Source of the DNA: an uncultured virus (IMG/VR IMGVR_UViG_3300035643_000181)
Taxonomy: Duplodnaviria; Heunggongvirae; Uroviricota; Caudoviricetes
DNA length: 64,000 nt
IMG/VR virus record: IMGVR_UViG_3300035643_000181
Reading direction: 5' to 3' (one strand)
Translations under genes and position numbers: made by a program
The notes under the pieces: generated by a model
What the model saw: only the letters and a program-made list of their open reading frames with translations
What the model was told of the DNA's origin: nothing
Databases searched by the model: none
In this document: positions 35,799 through 54,997 of the stretch, one piece after another
How positions within the stretch are numbered: the stretch's first letter is position 1
How the letters are laid out: each line of letters starts with the position of its first letter

Positions 35799-37448
35799 CT
35801 ATGTAGCGGTTGTCAACTTCTCCTTGGGTGGTATCAACCCCCAGCGGTGTTTCAGGTTGTAATGTAGGGTTGAAACTGATATTTCCTTACCGAATTGGGT
35901 GGTTAATTCCCTGGCGGTCGCAGAGGTATTACGCCCGTGTTTTTCCCAGATCGTTATAATCTGAGCCTTGTGGGTATCGAGTTCTCCCGGCACTATACTA
36001 TCGAGCTCAGGTTCCTTCTCAGATGGCTTCATCTTCTCGATAGCCTTCCACAGGTCCATCAGAGCGCGCAGGACCAACCGGGCGCCTCGGGTATGCTGGC
36101 AATTCGGTAGGGTCTGGACGTACTCATCCCAATTGGACAGTAGCTTACCCAGACCCACCGGGTCGGTCACTTCAACCAGCACTTCGTAATATTCCATATG
36201 GGGTTTCGCCAATGTGCTTTTAAAAGCCCGGACGGTATTGTCCTTGAGTAAACCCAATCCATATGCCAGCATTTCCGATGGAGACTTTCTCTGAACTTCA
36301 CTAACAGGTCGGCATGTCTTCTTGAGGAAGCTGAAAAATTCCTCCTCAGTACAACCCGGCTCGTAATCCCCCAGGGGCTTTTGGATGCGCTCTTTGTCAA
36401 TGTGCTCATCGCCTGGCTCGGCTCGCTCCCAGTTCATGTGTTCATCCCTAGATATGGCTTGTTTACTTAGCTTCGACAATGTTCCGCGAGATATTTTCCA
36501 TCGTTTAACAGTTTTTGCCTCTCCTAATTCCGCCAGGTCTTTTAAAATAGCTTCCCTATTCTCCTGGTAATAATTATGCAGTTCTAAAAGGTAGTCCACA
36601 TGGGGGCCTGGGCTGGGCTTTTTCGGTATCGGGGACCGCTCGCCCTCTTTGTGTTTATCTTGTCTCTGGGCTCGCTCCTGCTGCGTGGTCTTCTCATTAG
36701 GGATGGCTTGCTCAGGGATTGTAGTTTTCTCACCTTGCCTGGCTCGCTCCTTGTCGATGTGCTCATCGTTCTGAAAGGCCCGCTCTTCTGCAATAGGTTT
36801 CTCTACGTTGCTAGCACGCTTATGCTGTGCGATTTTCTCATCCTGGACGGCTTGCTCAGGGATTGTAGTTTTCTCCGTCTTTTTTGCCCGCTCACTGTCA
36901 AGGTGCTTATCGACACTAGCGGCTCGCTTATGGCTTATAGGTTTCTTGTCAGTTTTGGCCCGCTCACCGAAAATAGTTTTCTCTACGTTTCCGGCTTCCT
37001 CAAAACCCTGTTTTGCCCATTGCCATCCCTCCTGGACCTTATCTAGATGGTTAGGGCAGAGATAAAACCTGGCGATGATACCATTCTGGGACAGCGCATT
37101 CGAATACCAGTTATCTTTTCCACCTCTCATTTCTCCACATGGCAGATCATCAGGTGGTTGGTTATCACAGAAGAGGCAATGGCGGTTGGTGTCCTCTACT
37201 TCTTCAGGAAATTCTTTTGGTGTACCCCATTTTCTCGACCAGCATTTCGGGCACTGGCGTGGTGGGGCCTTACTATGCCACTCATGACCGCATTGCTGGC
37301 ACTTATAAACCAAACCTTTCCTCTTGTGCTTCCCTTGTTCACTCTCACGTGACACTTCCACCACTTTGGCTTCTTTTGTATGAGCCTGAGCGATGCGCTC
37401 TCTATTCATCCTGGCTGCTTCTAAATTATTTAAGTCAACAAGTTTCAT
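35799..37448 (-). CDS. zinc-ribbon/HTH protein containing in-frame 12-aa repeats encoded by a TIGR-like array
   Basis: CQQC..CPKC N-terminus, HTH-like C-terminus, ATGA coupling with upstream gene, ERA...EK/DKH 12-aa periodicity. Confidence 0.75.
   Translation of the reverse strand: MKLVDLNNLEAARMNRERIAQAHTKEAKVVEVSRESEQGKHKRKGLVYKCQQCGHEWHSKAPPRQCPKCWSRKWGTPKEFPEEVEDTNRHCLFCDNQPPDDLPCGEMRGGKDNWYSNALSQNGIIARFYLCPNHLDKVQEGWQWAKQGFEEAGNVEKTIFGERAKTDKKPISHKRAASVDKHLDSERAKKTEKTTIPEQAVQDEKIAQHKRASNVEKPIAEERAFQNDEHIDKERARQGEKTTIPEQAIPNEKTTQQERAQRQDKHKEGERSPIPKKPSPGPHVDYLLELHNYYQENREAILKDLAELGEAKTVKRWKISRGTLSKLSKQAISRDEHMNWERAEPGDEHIDKERIQKPLGDYEPGCTEEEFFSFLKKTCRPVSEVQRKSPSEMLAYGLGLLKDNTVRAFKSTLAKPHMEYYEVLVEVTDPVGLGKLLSNWDEYVQTLPNCQHTRGARLVLRALMDLWKAIEKMKPSEKEPELDSIVPGELDTHKAQIITIWEKHGRNTSATARELTTQFGKEISVSTLHYNLKHRWGLIPPKEKLTTAT
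36384..36464 (-). repeat. TIGR-like mini-array 3 (2 units plus edge), inside the same CDS
   Basis: aaacaagcc-atatctagg-gatgaacac-atgaactgg-gagcgagcc-gagccaggc-gatgagcac-attgacaaa-gagcgcatc. Confidence 0.7.
36633..37001 (-). repeat. TIGR-like array 2 (10 x 36-nt units plus terminal edge repeat), inside a CDS
   Basis: Edge GAGCGRGCC-like 9-mer, 9-nt spacer, loop GAGAAAACT/GATAAACAC-like 9-mer, 9-nt spacer; exact 36-nt period. Confidence 0.85.
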
Positions 37449-37711: not shown

Positions 37712-37870
37712 CTTTCTAAAAGCTCCTGATATTCGTTAGTTGCATAAATTCCACCATAACTAGCCCACCATAAATCTGAGGTATAGGATTCCCAACACTC
37801 TTGGCATAAGTTATCCCACTCAGCGATGTTCTCATGGCACTTTGAACACATCATTCTCCTACCTCCTGTC

Positions 37871-42952: not shown

Positions 42953-45208
42953 TCACCATTCTTGAAGATAATCCTTGATGTCGATGCCGAACAACTCAAT
43001 CGGTTTGGTCTTTATCTTATAGCGGCCGATATCATCGCCCCGGTCGGACAGGTAGTAGAACATCATCTTGACTACCAGTTGGGCCAGCTGGGACTCGCTC
43101 ATCTTGTCCAGTAACTCCCAGAGGGCTTCCTTGGTACGCTTATCATCAGCGGTACCACTACTGACCTCATCCCATACGTATTTGTAGGGTGACTTCCAAC
43201 CGGTGCCACTGTAGTAGCTGGTAACATGATGGCCTTCGAACTGCGCCAGGATAACGAGCTTTAGAGTTGGCTTGAAAGCCTCGAGCTGGGCAGTGTCCTC
43301 AACAATTTTGAGGGCTTCCTTGATAGCCTTTGCCTCTGCCTGCTTTTGAGCCAGACCCTCAGCATGCTCTGCCCGGGTCTTGGCGCCCTTCTTTTGAGCT
43401 AGGCACTTGGGATTGGTGCAGACGGAGTAGACCTGGCTCTCGTTATCGGTACTCCTGTAAGCATAATGAAAGCCGGTAGTGCATTTCTCCAAACATTCCT
43501 CCGGGTTATCTAGCTGATTAAGAATGTCAGTATACTTGTCCTTGAGAATCTGCAGGCCAGAACTGGGACTGTCGTGGATATCGAGTATTTCGGCACGGGT
43601 GCCGGCCTTTTCCCTGGCGAGACTGAGGATATCTGCCGGTATGGTCTGCTTTACTTCCTCCACTTGGTTATCGATAGTGGGGATAATGGTCTTCTTAGTT
43701 ACTGCCCGGTAGTCTTTGAGACAGACCTTACGGTAGGCTATGTGGTCGCTAGCCGCCCGGTTGTGAGTGGGGAAGCTGAAATTAACCGTATGGTCTTCAG
43801 TGTCGAGTTTGCACCCCTGGCATTCCTCCTCAGGGACGTCTTCGGCCCAGCGGACACCAGACGGGGGCAGTACTGCCTTTATGGTGGTTTTGACTGGCTT
43901 GGATATTTCCTGGGAAATAGCCTTAGCCTCGGTGAAGGTTGTCTCCGGCCCGACGAGGACACACTGGCTCTTGCCATAGGTAACCACCATCCCGTGATAG
44001 AAACCCAAGGGGTCATTTCGAAGTGACTCGTAATACTCCTCGTACTCTCTACCCTGGGGAACGCTATAGGTGCGTGTCTCACCCTTCCACTCCTCACACC
44101 TTACCAGTTGGTAGCAACGATATTCTTCTAGACCACTACTGGTACATATCCAGTCCTTACCGTCGTACAGGAAGGGATTGTGTACCTTGGAGAATGTATG
44201 GGCGATAATATCAGTCGAGGAACTCGGCTTAACCTTCTCTTCCAGGAAGGACTTATCGACGTAGACGAGACTAATACCTAACTCCATGGGAGTTGGCTTC
44301 TGTTCTACCCTGGGTAGCTCGGCAGTTGCCTTCTGAAGCACTTCGGCCTCCATCTTGGCTTTAGCCTCAGCAGCTATCTTGTCACGATGCTCCTGCTGTT
44401 TCTTCTCCCAACAATCCTTATTGGTACAGTAATAGGTGGTATCCTTTTGAGTAGGGTGAACGACAATCTTACAGCTACACTCGAGGCAGCCCTGCTCTTT
44501 AGCATCAAAAAGTGGTGCATTTCTTCGCCAGCTGGCTCCGCCTTTTTCAAGAGCGTTGAATTTGTAACTGGCGACTTCGGCTATGGCACGGATGATACCC
44601 TGGACCGTGGGCGGTTCGCCCCAGTTCTTGCTACCTGTCTTTAGCTTGGAGATAGCATCCCGCATAAGTTCCAGGGCATTGTCGAAACCGGAGAAGATGA
44701 GTAACTCCCGGGCCATGTGGAAATTGATAATGTCCTCATTGAGTTTCTCCAGGATCTCCGGGGGTAAGGCAATCACCCGGCGCATATTGGAGACTGCGCC
44801 CTGCGTCATTCCTAGGGCACTGGCCAGTTTCACTTCGGAAATATCGGGGTTCTGATTTAGGAAGGCATCTATGCCACGGGCGACCTCAACAGGTTTAAGG
44901 TCCGTTCGTTTAATGTTCTCGTCGATAGCGATGGCGAACATATCATCGTCGGATAGTCTCTGTACCTCGACCGGCATGGTCGCCCACTTCTCCGGGTCTT
45001 TCTTAGCAAGCTTTTGCCAGGCTCTCTTCCGTAGTGAGCCGAAGGCCAGCTGATACCGGCCATCGACCTGCCTGCCTTTGGGCGGTTCCTGGAGGCCGAT
45101 ACGTTCGATTGACTCAGCGAGTTCGTCAATCTTTTTGGTGGGATAATGCGTACGGGGGTTAAAGGGGTTGTCATCAATGAGTTCAACTGGGATATTTTCC
45201 ACTGGCAT
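42953..45208 (-). CDS. parB: ParB/Spo0J-family protein with long C-terminal extension
   Basis: NPFNPR, LAESIERIGLQEP, LAFGSLRKRA, DENIKRTDL, HTH. Confidence 0.85.
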   Translation of the reverse strand: MPVENIPVELIDDNPFNPRTHYPTKKIDELAESIERIGLQEPPKGRQVDGRYQLAFGSLRKRAWQKLAKKDPEKWATMPVEVQRLSDDDMFAIAIDENIKRTDLKPVEVARGIDAFLNQNPDISEVKLASALGMTQGAVSNMRRVIALPPEILEKLNEDIINFHMARELLIFSGFDNALELMRDAISKLKTGSKNWGEPPTVQGIIRAIAEVASYKFNALEKGGASWRRNAPLFDAKEQGCLECSCKIVVHPTQKDTTYYCTNKDCWEKKQQEHRDKIAAEAKAKMEAEVLQKATAELPRVEQKPTPMELGISLVYVDKSFLEEKVKPSSSTDIIAHTFSKVHNPFLYDGKDWICTSSGLEEYRCYQLVRCEEWKGETRTYSVPQGREYEEYYESLRNDPLGFYHGMVVTYGKSQCVLVGPETTFTEAKAISQEISKPVKTTIKAVLPPSGVRWAEDVPEEECQGCKLDTEDHTVNFSFPTHNRAASDHIAYRKVCLKDYRAVTKKTIIPTIDNQVEEVKQTIPADILSLAREKAGTRAEILDIHDSPSSGLQILKDKYTDILNQLDNPEECLEKCTTGFHYAYRSTDNESQVYSVCTNPKCLAQKKGAKTRAEHAEGLAQKQAEAKAIKEALKIVEDTAQLEAFKPTLKLVILAQFEGHHVTSYYSGTGWKSPYKYVWDEVSSGTADDKRTKEALWELLDKMSESQLAQLVVKMMFYYLSDRGDDIGRYKIKTKPIELFGIDIKDYLQEW

Positions 45209-48315: not shown

Positions 48316-48348
48316 GCAGTTAATCCAAATTAGTGGTAGGTAAGAGGA

Positions 48349-48975
48349 TTGAACGGTTGTACCACCCCAAGCAAGTTACGGGTCTATGCCGGTCTGGCGC
48401 CAGGAATGAGACGAAAAGCCGGGGAGAAGATACATTATAATCAGCGTCTCAAGATGCTTTTCTTCCGTCTTGCCAGTAGTCTGATGCGGGTAAAGGGGTA
48501 CCGCTGGGTCGCCGATCCGGCTGCTGAGGGTTATACCGGGAATATTGACGACCTAACTTATAGTGAAAAACTAGCAAGGTACCACATGCCTGATCCCGCT
48601 ATAGATGGTAAATTCTACGTCTTCTACTGCCAGTATAAAGACCATCTTATCCGCCGTGAGACGGCTAAAGGCACCAAAATAGTACCGACCCCTAAAGAAC
48701 GTTTCTGCTTTAATTGTAACAAGGAGGTAGTTAAAAAGGCGGCTAAGTTTTGTCCGGACTGTCATGAGCCGTTATCCTTAAAAACTGAGCCTCCAGGAGT
48801 TCTTTATAAGGGTCATCTGCATCTGCTGGCTCTGCATAGAATGGAGCAAATGTTTTCAGATCAGCTCTGGGTTGCCTGGCGCAAAACTTTGGGATTGCCT
48901 CTTCGCCAGCCCTATCCAGTGGAATTTTTAGGGCACTCGCAGATTCTGTCTCCGGAAGACTTTATGGATAAGTAA
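48349..48975 (+). CDS. tasA: Nop-domain Tas protein (TasA-like, no nuclease domain), apparently short at the N-terminus, with zinc-ribbon insertion
   Basis: SKLRVYAGL, YNQRLK, FY..YK, H..ALHRM..F...LW..WR...GLP...PY IS110/Nop-like motifs; stop codon lies inside the first array repeat. Confidence 0.75.
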   Translation: MNGCTTPSKLRVYAGLAPGMRRKAGEKIHYNQRLKMLFFRLASSLMRVKGYRWVADPAAEGYTGNIDDLTYSEKLARYHMPDPAIDGKFYVFYCQYKDHLIRRETAKGTKIVPTPKERFCFNCNKEVVKKAAKFCPDCHEPLSLKTEPPGVLYKGHLHLLALHRMEQMFSDQLWVAWRKTLGLPLRQPYPVEFLGHSQILSPEDFMDK

Positions 48976-49698
48976 GCAAGATATCTCGAGTAATCCATGA
49001 AGAACGAGCGAGCCGTGAAGTCGGAGAAACCTATTTTAAGAGAGTGAGCCGGGGAGGGCGAGAAATCCATGTAGAAAGAGTGTGCCAAGGACGTGGATAA
49101 ACACATCTCCAGGGAGCGGGCCACATACTTAGATAACCACATGGGACAAGAGTGTGCCAGAAAGGTCGAGAAATCTATAAAAAGCGGGCGAGCCAATGTT
49201 ATTGATAAATACAAAGTTAAAGAGTGTACCGTGTTCTACGAGAAACCTAGGGAGATCGAGTGAGCCGACTGACGGGAGAAACCTTCGACCTGGGAGTGAG
49301 CTGGTGGTAAAGATAAACACAAACACTATGAGCGTGCCAGTCTTTAGGATAAACACAGGGGTGAGGAGTGGGCTACGTTTGATGATGAACACGAGGGGAA
49401 GGAGTGAGCCAAGGCGAGCGATAAACACATATGGCATGAGTGAGCCGGTCGGAGTGAGAAACCTAGCATGGGTGAGCGTGCCAATGGACGAGAGAAATCT
49501 ATTGCTGGTGAGCGAGACAGCAGGCATGAGAAACCTACGGACCAAGAGCGAGCCACTATCTTGGATAAACACACCGGGGGCGAGCGGGCTAATGACAGGT
49601 AGAAACCTCGAAGATGAGAGCGAGCCAGCTGCCGCGAGAAACCTAGAGCAACGGAGCGAGCCGATGAAGAAAAGAAATCTATGAAACTTGAGCGATGC
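48970..49698 (+). ncRNA. TIGR array (20 x 36-nt dual-repeat guide units plus terminal edge repeat)
   Basis: Exact 36-nt period: edge GAGYGWGCC-like, 9-nt spacer A, loop GAGAAAYCY or GATAAACAC, 9-nt spacer B; spacers all different. Confidence 0.9.
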
Positions 49699-49722
49699 TA
49701 TACTTAAGAACAGAGGAGTGAT

Positions 49723-50664
49723 ATGAAGAGTGAGATTCGTGAACACTTTATTGCGGAGTTAGAGGTCTCCTCAGCAGAAACAGTGCGGATACGTACCCAC
49801 TGGTGTGATAAATTCCTTGAGTTTGCCCCGGAGAATTTATCGGAGTGGAACAAGGATATAGTCAACGGGTTTCTCAGAAAGCTGAAAAACGAGGGCTATA
49901 CTCCTTCGACTGTCCGCTATGCTTACGGAGTAGTAAGGCGGGTATTCGATTCTGCTAAGGCCGTTCATGAGAATCAGCGCCGGCACCTTCTTTCCGGTAT
50001 GGACATCACCGACCCGGCATCGGCAGTGGTGGCCATCGCCAAGATCCAGAAGTTTGACCTGGACGGCGGACCAGTTTGGAATCTGGGGAAACGAGCCATG
50101 CCCAAAGTTAAGACTGATGATGTTAATAAGCCGGCGCTCTCCCTGGAGGAAATTGGTAGGATAGTCAATGTAGTGAAGGGTGGTGATTTGAAAGATTACG
50201 AGGCTGCCTTTGTGCTATTGTCCCTGGTTTACGGATTGCGCCAGGGGGAACTGCAGGCAATCAAGCCAGAGCACATAAACTATGAGGCCGGGATCATCTT
50301 TATAACGACTGAAAAAGGTGGTGAGCAGCGTAATCAAATCCTGGAGCCGGCTATCGTACCCTATTTGGAGAAATACGACTTTCACTATGATTTCGACCCC
50401 TCATGGATGAATAGAATATTTAAGAATATTTGTAATAAGGCTGAAGTTAAAAACCGGAAGGGTATGGCTTGGCACGGCTCCCGCCGCTATCTGGACACCC
50501 AGCTGGTCAAAAGCTGTGGTGAACTCTATGCCCACATATTTCTACGTTGGAAGATTAGCACTTCACCTGACATGGAAGTAAGATATTTCAGCGAGGATCC
50601 GTTAGAAGTTGACAAATTTGTGTTATCGAAACACCCGGTGGTACCATTGCTACAAGGTGTATAA
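49723..50664 (+). CDS. tyrosine recombinase/integrase
   Basis: SAM-like N-domain; YGLRQGEL (Arg), TEKGG (Lys), HGSRR (HxxR), LRW, RYF (Tyr). Confidence 0.85.
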   Translation: MKSEIREHFIAELEVSSAETVRIRTHWCDKFLEFAPENLSEWNKDIVNGFLRKLKNEGYTPSTVRYAYGVVRRVFDSAKAVHENQRRHLLSGMDITDPASAVVAIAKIQKFDLDGGPVWNLGKRAMPKVKTDDVNKPALSLEEIGRIVNVVKGGDLKDYEAAFVLLSLVYGLRQGELQAIKPEHINYEAGIIFITTEKGGEQRNQILEPAIVPYLEKYDFHYDFDPSWMNRIFKNICNKAEVKNRKGMAWHGSRRYLDTQLVKSCGELYAHIFLRWKISTSPDMEVRYFSEDPLEVDKFVLSKHPVVPLLQGV

Positions 50665-54283: not shown

Positions 54284-54997
54284 ATGGTAAAACTTAGTTC
54301 CCATAAGGAAATTGTTATATTTTCTGGCCATCCTTTAGCTGATAAAATTGCAAATTTAACCTTCCCCACCAAGAAGGAAACAGCAGAACATTATCCTTTT
54401 TACTTTTATGTTAAAGATTTATCTACTTGGTTAGCTCCAAGAAATATCAGAGATAATACTTGGGATGAAATTTTTCCAGGTGTGGGAGAACGAAACTGGT
54501 GTCCCATATGTGGTAGCGACCTCGATGCGCGAGGATTGTGTCCTCGTTATCCACATAAGGTTAAAGAGGAACCGGTGAAAACTACCAGGACGAACCTGGA
54601 TGAGAAGATACACACTTCGTCGGGTGACCCCAAGATACTAGCCTTGCGTAATAGTAAAATCCCCTGGTGGACTAACACCCCTCTGGCGGTATCAATGCAT
54701 CAGGAAATTCCCAGGTATTGGTATCATGTTGGTCGCGGCTCCAAGGCCAAAGGAATACCGGCTTACAAAATAAGGGAAATTGAGGCCGCTGACACGTTTG
54801 GTCTGGACTATTTCAAGTATCAGTATGTGTGGTTAAGCCCGAAACCAATATATGGACCGGATGCCTTCATCATTGATATAACTAAGCTGGATAATGCCAA
54901 CCTGAGATTTACTGGGCAGATAGAGGGTAATTTGCTTCACAAGGGCGATATCCCTCCTAAAGCCATAGTTGGCGAGCGTGGAAAACCATATAATTAG
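54284..54997 (+). CDS. WCxxC-tagged protein with possible ADP-ribosyltransferase-like C-domain
   Basis: YWYHVG...VWLS...IDITKL...HKGDIPPKAI pattern. Confidence 0.5.
   Translation: MVKLSSHKEIVIFSGHPLADKIANLTFPTKKETAEHYPFYFYVKDLSTWLAPRNIRDNTWDEIFPGVGERNWCPICGSDLDARGLCPRYPHKVKEEPVKTTRTNLDEKIHTSSGDPKILALRNSKIPWWTNTPLAVSMHQEIPRYWYHVGRGSKAKGIPAYKIREIEAADTFGLDYFKYQYVWLSPKPIYGPDAFIIDITKLDNANLRFTGQIEGNLLHKGDIPPKAIVGERGKPYN

Follow-up and report, generated by a model that had tools for sequence, protein, structure and literature searches.

An in-frame TIGR-like dual-repeat array in the linker of a zinc-ribbon/helix-turn-helix protein: a candidate dual-coding gene of an uncultured virus

We analyzed a 64,000-nt stretch of DNA from an uncultured virus of the Caudoviricetes (IMG/VR record IMGVR_UViG_3300035643_000181), hereafter the window, which covers 64 kb of a 76,727-nt contig, the other 12.7 kb lying outside. 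A 549-amino acid (aa) open reading frame (ORF) on its minus strand (35799..37448), encoding a protein with zinc (Zn) ribbon and helix-turn-helix (HTH) modules, contains a long array of repeats of the tandem interspaced guide RNA (TIGR) type, and these repeats are the same as those of a free array located about 12 kb away, beside a remnant of a tas gene. A preliminary description of the window, made from the sequence alone, had claimed such an in-frame array, and our analysis confirmed it. The description had proposed either a messenger RNA (mRNA) with two functions or a guide array domesticated as a protein linker; the data fall within this pair without separating its members, as signs of translation and of intact guide RNA structure are both present. 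The reading that we favour, tentatively and at somewhat less than an even chance, is that the array is translated as a linker and retains the anatomy of guide RNAs, which would make the ORF a dual-coding gene of the replication module.

The main embedded array (36606..37001, minus strand) consists of 11 units of 36 nt, which code in frame for aa 150-281. In a register running from 37001 downwards, each unit is composed of an edge repeat, a spacer, a loop repeat and a second spacer of 9 nt each, with edges of the form GAGCGRGCC and loops of the form GAGAAAMCT or GATAARCAC, and the translated unit reads as the 12-aa pattern ERA-xxx-EK[PT]/DKH-xxx. A second patch in the same codon frame (36384..36464, minus strand), at the junction between the first HTH module (HTH1) and the C-terminal domain (C-domain), comprises a degenerate edge, two full units and a truncated edge at its end. 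The earlier count of 10 plus 2 units was correct in that both patches are real, but the main patch extends to an eleventh, degenerate unit (36641..36606, ERS-PIP-KKP-SPG), which it has in common with the linker of the orthologues described below. Where the embedded repeats depart from the consensus, the residue changes are mostly conservative (E>K, R>Q, P>T). A search of the window with a degenerate edge-N9-loop pattern gave 31 matches compared to 1.4 expected, a number reached in 0 of 100 shuffles; 11 of these fall in the ORF and 19 in the free array, with a stray match at position 37850 making up the rest. Alternating repeats, spacers of about 9 nt and a 36-nt unit in tandem, as expected of a dual-repeat array, were thus found in the 11 + 2 embedded and the 19 free units, whereas adjacency to tas was not found for the embedded array, which is separated from the tas remnant by about 12 kb and runs on the other strand. 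No terminator-like site was detected 3' of either embedded segment on the strand of the gene, and the scans for promoter-like and terminator-like sites around both arrays gave counts at the level of shuffled sequence.

The composition of the embedded units was compared with that of free units, comprising the 19 units of the element's own array and 68 units from other loci (L002-L004, L006 and L007; L005, identical in sequence to L003, was dropped). As stated in the preliminary description, the edge variant GAG-TGA-GCY, which introduces an in-frame stop, is found in 5 of the 19 edges of the element's free array and in none of the 14 embedded edges, and T at edge position 4 occurs in 0/14 embedded versus 9/19 free edges (p=0.004). 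The codon score of the embedded spacers in frame 0 was +0.27, compared to −0.19 for the free-array spacers and 0.26 ± 0.10 for the genes of the window (213 sixty-codon chunks from 46 ORFs). Stop codons are absent from the 66 embedded spacer codons and account for 23 of the 522 free ones (p=0.10), while codons beginning with T are reduced (2/66 versus 86/522; p=0.0017, or p=0.007 with stops excluded), as are the residues F, W, Y, C, L and M (3/66 versus 77/522; p=0.02). The probability that 11 units would all be open was 0.006 when calculated from the element's own free array and 0.027 from the other free arrays; openness alone is weak evidence, since free arrays show open runs of 120-126 aa, as in locus L004. 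By codon usage and composition, then, the embedded spacers look translated, and the segment that they encode is predicted to be disordered. Because one unit corresponds to exactly 12 codons, the gain or loss of units leaves the reading frame intact.

The duplicated segment DEHIDKER indeed differs between its two copies at synonymous sites only, with two changes (ATC/ATT and AAG/AAA). Most of the differences between the paralogous units 5 and 9 are non-synonymous. Spacers of different embedded units are no more alike than random sequences, so recent tandem duplication alone does not account for the likeness of the repeats. The antisense strand is open across both arrays, at 36600-37046 on the plus strand (148 aa) and at 49129-49746 on the minus strand (205 aa); these frames probably reflect the purine richness of the sense strand and are not genes.

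For the RNA-level features of the units, we followed Faure et al. (2025; PMC12045711), where repeats are described as starting with a box D and ending with a box C, with one base of each forming a pair, and the edge is described as having an additional pair backed by covariation. The positions of boxes C and D in the window were assigned by analogy to that study. We scored twelve candidate 36-mers of the ORF, extending from mid-edge to mid-edge, for three pairs, and all 36 cells contained a standard pair, the loop pair being G:C in six, U:A in five and G:U in one. In the free array, 98.2% of 57 cells were standard, with the edge pair being G:C in 10 units, G:U in 8 and A:U in 1, and the loop pair G:C in 11 and U:A in 8. 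Paired box ends with covarying variants, as expected of dual-repeat units, are present in both arrays under this assignment by analogy. When the repeat codons were resampled according to the codon usage of the window, a mean of 21.4 and a maximum of 33 of the 36 cells were paired, and none of 200,000 trials reached 36. The synonymous choices in the repeats are narrow, with Glu encoded by GAG 15 times and never by GAA (52:48 in the genes of the window), Arg encoded by CGN 8 times and never by AGR, and Ala encoded by GCC in 8 of 10 cases. Position 24, which lies in the unpaired gap, has drifted in the embedded units (A in 7, G in 4) compared to the free array (A in 18/19). The U:A variant of the loop pair occurs in 5/12 embedded and 8/19 free units, compared to 1/71 units of other viral arrays (p=1.5e-4), and is thus nearly private to this element.

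The 549-aa protein was used in an exhaustive HMMER search, which yielded 103 hits and revealed a modular protein. The homolog P0002 (238 aa, E 3e-53, 54% identity to the window protein over aa 3-153) comprises the N-terminal helix and the Cys-rich domain, joined by a 25-aa linker to HTH1, after which the protein stops. Together with its counterparts in loci L008 and L010, it belongs to a set of single proteins of 225-238 aa with the N-domain, linker and HTH1; the C-terminal extension is missing in L008 and L010. In two other homologs, P0003 and P0004, the C-domain comes after the same N-terminal helix motif, and stand-alone relatives of the N-terminal part exist as well. Genes of the P0002 type were found at three metagenome loci, and in the two for which gene order was examined (L008 and L010), a DnaB-like gene, the orthologue, a 95-aa gene, an HNH-like gene and a gene for a UvrD-like helicase follow one another in the same order as around the window gene.

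At the DNA level, the 25-aa linker of these orthologues retains two decayed TIGR units. The first matches unit 2 of the window array (KTEAKKPIK versus KTD-KKPIS), and the second, GAG GCG GCC CCG ATA CCT GAA AAA CCA AAG CCT GGT, matches unit 11; both have decayed at the box and pair positions (GAGGCGGCC ... GAAAAACCA). Since these units are retained at the same place, the linker held TIGR-like units before the lineages split, and the window gene has about nine more units than its orthologues. The preliminary description had allowed that the ORF might be a chance fusion of two genes around a non-coding array. An alignment with homologues that lack the insert, which it had suggested, shows the same domains joined by the 25-aa linker, and the idea of a fusion fails for the main array, given that the orthologues join the N-domain and HTH; it holds in part for the two-unit patch, which is located where a P0002-like module, ending after HTH1, meets a P0003-like module with the C-domain. 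No other long array-bearing orthologue was found among 5.8 billion proteins, and the IMG/VR match to the 549-aa protein was a stand-alone Zn ribbon only. An origin of the arrangement by inversion between the two oppositely oriented arrays was considered and set aside by reasoning only, because in the alternative arrangement the N-domain would be split from HTH1, although the orthologues show that the two belong together.

The ORF at 35799..37448 is a genuine gene with a modular build and belongs to the replication module of this phage-like element. From the N-terminus, the protein consists of a helix, a Zn ribbon, a Cys-rich domain, the array-encoded segment, HTH1, the two-unit patch, the C-domain and a second HTH module (HTH2). 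The N-terminal part (aa 1-149; 37002..37448, minus strand) includes the helix at aa 6-37, the Zn ribbon at about aa 47-75 and the Cys-rich domain at aa 88-149. HTH1 (aa ~282-328; 36465..36605, minus strand) follows a conserved PGPH motif and is delimited by homologues and by an AlphaFold2 (AF2) model, in which its predicted local distance difference test (pLDDT) values are 83-97. The C-terminal extension (35799..36383, minus strand) contains the P0003/P0004-like domain (aa ~355-482) and the second helical, HTH-like module. The AF2 model, computed from a 93-row alignment with a mean pLDDT of 70, gives confident predictions at aa 45-160, 275-342 and 430-540 and falls below a pLDDT of 50 at aa 168-267 and 347-425. 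The ATG of the ORF overlaps the stop codon of the upstream ORF (ATGA, 37445-37448), and the downstream gene begins 28 nt past its stop, preceded by an AGGAGG ribosome binding site. Pfam and PHROGs gave only weak Zn-ribbon matches, a fold search of the model against the PDB returned nothing at E ≤ 0.001 and generic zinc ribbons only, and tblastn against isolated phages gave no match to the protein. A search for sequencing runs listed none for 35799..37448.

The first Zn ribbon (aa 47-75; 37226-37310, minus strand) is missing from P0002 and from the orthologues in L008 and L010, and an IMG/VR contig (L001, 3235-3519) encodes it as a separate protein of 94 aa. It is thus a second module that the 549-aa gene has gained.

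The free array (49006..49698, plus strand) consists of 19 dual-repeat units and a truncated last edge and begins 31 nt after the stop codon of the tas remnant (48340..48975, plus strand), which encodes the C-terminal Nop part of Tas, with a Zn-ribbon insert and a Tyr/His (Y/H) dyad. The description of this array as Tas-linked therefore stands as to its location, but only the C-terminal part of Tas is present. The remnant amounts to the C-terminal ~208 aa of a protein of ~330-360 aa, and all 21 of its relatives are 308-364 aa long. In tblastn comparisons with five relatives, the ORF of the window aligns only from about residue 128-191 of the relative onwards, and their N-terminal ~150 aa, with the coiled coil and helix-hairpin-helix, had no convincing match in the window; an alignment of 10 Tas sequences likewise shows the ORF without the N-terminal half. 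Its identity as a Nop domain was established by profile comparison of the clade with TasR (9mty_A, E 1.5e-18) and TasH (21kl_A, E 2.7e-9); as a single sequence, it matched solved Tas structures with an E-value of 0.002 and the family phrog_4285 with 1.6e-11. Its PYPVEFLGH segment aligns with Y289...H296 of SpTasH, the residues that are catalytic in the cutting of the TIGR RNA precursor (pre-tigRNA) (PMC13421893), and across the 10 Tas relatives Y of this processing dyad is invariant and H nearly so. A well-kept array of 19 units thus stands beside half of a tas gene. An ORF at 54284..54997 was considered as the missing half and was not accepted, having only a weak pairwise match (E 8e-4) and no Pfam hit. 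The full-length Tas P0105 had no tblastn match in isolated phages, and IMG/VR searches returned nothing for tas or P0002.

Two neighbors of the tas locus were recorded. A 751-aa protein with a ParB-like N-terminal domain (42953-45208, minus strand; phrog_4715, E 2.4e-20) is encoded 3-4 kb away; ParB-like genes occur in operons with tasA (Faure et al. 2025; PMC12045711), and the gene in the window lies on the strand opposite to tas and shares no operon with it. On the other side, the free array comes within ~25 nt of the start codon (ATG) of a gene for a tyrosine integrase (49723..50664; junction at 49690-49725, plus strand). As no terminator-like site was detected on the plus strand in this gap, array and integrase gene may belong to a common transcript.

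Under the dual-coding reading, the interdomain linker would be a TIGR dual-repeat array read in frame. The transcript would be translated into a hydrophilic linker, and the Nop domain of Tas would bind the same transcript at positions resembling boxes C and D, where the Y/H dyad of Tas would cut the edge repeats and release 36-nt guides. As cutting would destroy the mRNA, a given transcript would serve either for guide production or for expression of the Zn-ribbon/HTH protein. A more specific form of this proposal, which we consider unlikely to hold in full, is that the mRNA of a non-tas phage gene acts both as linker template and as pre-tigRNA and is cut by the half of Tas that retains RNA binding and the Y/H dyad, with the embedded array being live, gaining units as the free array does, and having its spacers filtered by translation. 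Growth by the mechanism of the free array is suggested by the shared U:A loop variant.

Several observations weigh against guide production from the ORF. All Tas proteins dimerise via the coiled coil (PMC13421893), and the tas gene of the window lacks precisely that half; for the same reason, DNA targeting by the element's own Tas is doubtful, unless the missing half is encoded in the 12.7 kb outside the window. Edge position 5 is occupied by A in 4 of the 14 embedded edges, while G was found in 90/90 free edges (p=2e-4). The processing cut has been placed inside the edge repeat, where this position lies (Faure et al. 2025; Xu et al. 2026; PMC13421893), and these substitutions would presumably hinder cutting; in about 6 of the 12 candidate units, both edges are canonical. 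The embedded units are also further from the consensus than the free ones, with means of about 2.0 and 0.8 mismatches, respectively, although it was from the free array that the consensus was taken. A young insertion from a live array could be enough to explain the intact pairs. The preliminary description had suggested searching for targets with the embedded spacers. Within the window, and allowing up to 3 mismatches in 18, this search gave no target for spacer pairs in the expected arrangements (rcA+B and B+rcA) and two matches in the control arrangements (A+B and B+A). Finally, the samples are small, and several of the embedded units are partial duplicates of one another.

The strongest alternative, a real possibility even if we would not call it probable, is that the array has been domesticated: units entered or expanded by recombination with a live array and now form just a disordered, charged spacer, with the RNA features as leftovers and no guides produced. 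The decayed units in the orthologues demonstrate that such units can persist as plain coding sequence, and the substitutions at edge position 5, the mostly conservative deviations in the repeats, the truncation of tas and the shuffle-level counts of promoter-like and terminator-like sites are all consistent with it, as is the mostly non-synonymous divergence of units 5 and 9, which a loosely constrained linker would show. Domestication does not readily account for the conservation of all 36 pair cells while the synonymous position 24 drifted, for pairing that codon usage alone did not reproduce in any resampling, for a lineage-specific loop variant in the same proportion as in the free array, or for repeats whose likeness does not stem from recent tandem duplication alone. 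The opposite possibility, that a live guide array lies in a dead gene whose 549-aa frame is a pseudogene or an annotation artefact open by chance, would fit the chance open frames of free arrays of this repeat family, the open antisense frames and the failure to find a second long array-bearing orthologue; we regard it as very improbable, because the array is flanked on either side by conserved domains in its own frame, which the orthologues join, the spacers have gene-like codon usage with T-first codons rarer than stop avoidance requires, and the operon context is tight. That the segment is an ordinary protein tandem repeat resembling TIGR by chance, as the occurrence of period-12 charged repeats and of ERAxxxEKTxxx proteins in databases might suggest, is already contradicted by the tests and scarcely credible, given that the free array 12 kb off has the identical 9-nt edge and the identical two covarying loop variants, that pattern matches greatly exceed expectation, that nucleotides at synonymous sites are conserved, and that two of the look-alikes inspected (P0021 and P0108) are Tas proteins with repeat units fused in frame at the N-terminus.

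The origin and growth of TIGR arrays are regarded as an open question (Faure et al. 2025, PMC12045711; Xu et al. 2026), and the window offers a natural comparison for it: one linker site that in the orthologues contains two decayed units and in the window 11 well-formed ones, together with a free array that shares a lineage-specific loop variant. Because the same site can be compared across orthologues, array growth inside a reading frame becomes directly testable. The findings widen the idea of guides within coding sequence from tas to an unrelated gene, and they show a route from array DNA to protein linkers and gene fusions. If the dual-coding reading is true, searches for TIGR limited to intergenic DNA near tas would miss arrays, and guide processing could act as post-transcriptional control of other phage genes.

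The embedded array shares with the canonical arrays of Faure et al. (2025; PMC12045711) the alternation of edge and loop, the 9-nt spacers, the 36-nt unit, and covarying, paired box D-like and box C-like ends. Arrays of the canonical kind do not code for protein, lie beside tas and usually close with a truncated edge and then a terminator, whereas the embedded array is translated sequence, as judged by its composition, without a terminator-like site of its own. The preliminary description knew of no account of such an arrangement, yet a precedent exists for units within tas, although not within other genes: according to Xu et al. (2026; bioRxiv 10.64898/2026.09.09.750476), stem-loop arrays and, less often, dual-repeat arrays can sit in frame within the tas coding sequence, usually in disordered segments, and the embedded units of BlTasA are present in small-RNA data. 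As in the 549-aa gene, those units keep the frame unbroken and lie in a disordered segment between folded elements, and the authors likewise propose a link between guide maturation and translation. The two cases differ in that the host described there is tas and the units are few and mostly of the stem-loop type, while here 11 + 2 dual-repeat units reside in a Zn-ribbon/HTH gene, none of whose detected homologues is a Tas, 12 kb from tas and on the other strand, with two-unit orthologues as a natural control. In the literature covered, in-frame TIGR units were found only in Xu et al. (2026), and there in tas hosts alone.

We also scanned 21 other arrays with a 36-nt period in 15 loci that were Tas-linked or found by pattern, leaving out the two arrays of the window, L024 (GC-rich, with a weak Tas match) and L005. 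None of the 21 is enclosed in an ORF that extends 50 aa or more beyond the array on each side; in L023 the array runs in frame into tas, and in L022 perhaps likewise. In five database proteins (P0037, P0089, P0074, P0078 and P0093), ERAxxxEK[TP]xxx blocks are joined in frame with parts that are not Tas: in P0037, two repeat blocks enclose a Sigma70_r4 HTH (E 3.8e-10), in P0089 a 270-aa N-terminal part is followed by ~29 units, and P0078 has a C-terminal HNH-like Cys/His motif, recognized by eye and without a Pfam hit. From their sequences, these proteins may represent further embedded arrays or gene-caller read-through of open arrays. In a contig of a Saccharibacteria metagenome-assembled genome (L020, 7492-12776), four to five separate arrays with a 36-nt period lie on both sides of a tas relative.

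A broader parallel is provided by the eukaryotic small nucleolar RNAs of the box C/D type, which are guides bound by Nop-domain proteins and excised from protein-coding host transcripts. Those guides are intronic, and the nucleotides of the protein and of the guide are separate, whereas in the 549-aa gene the same nucleotides would code for both.

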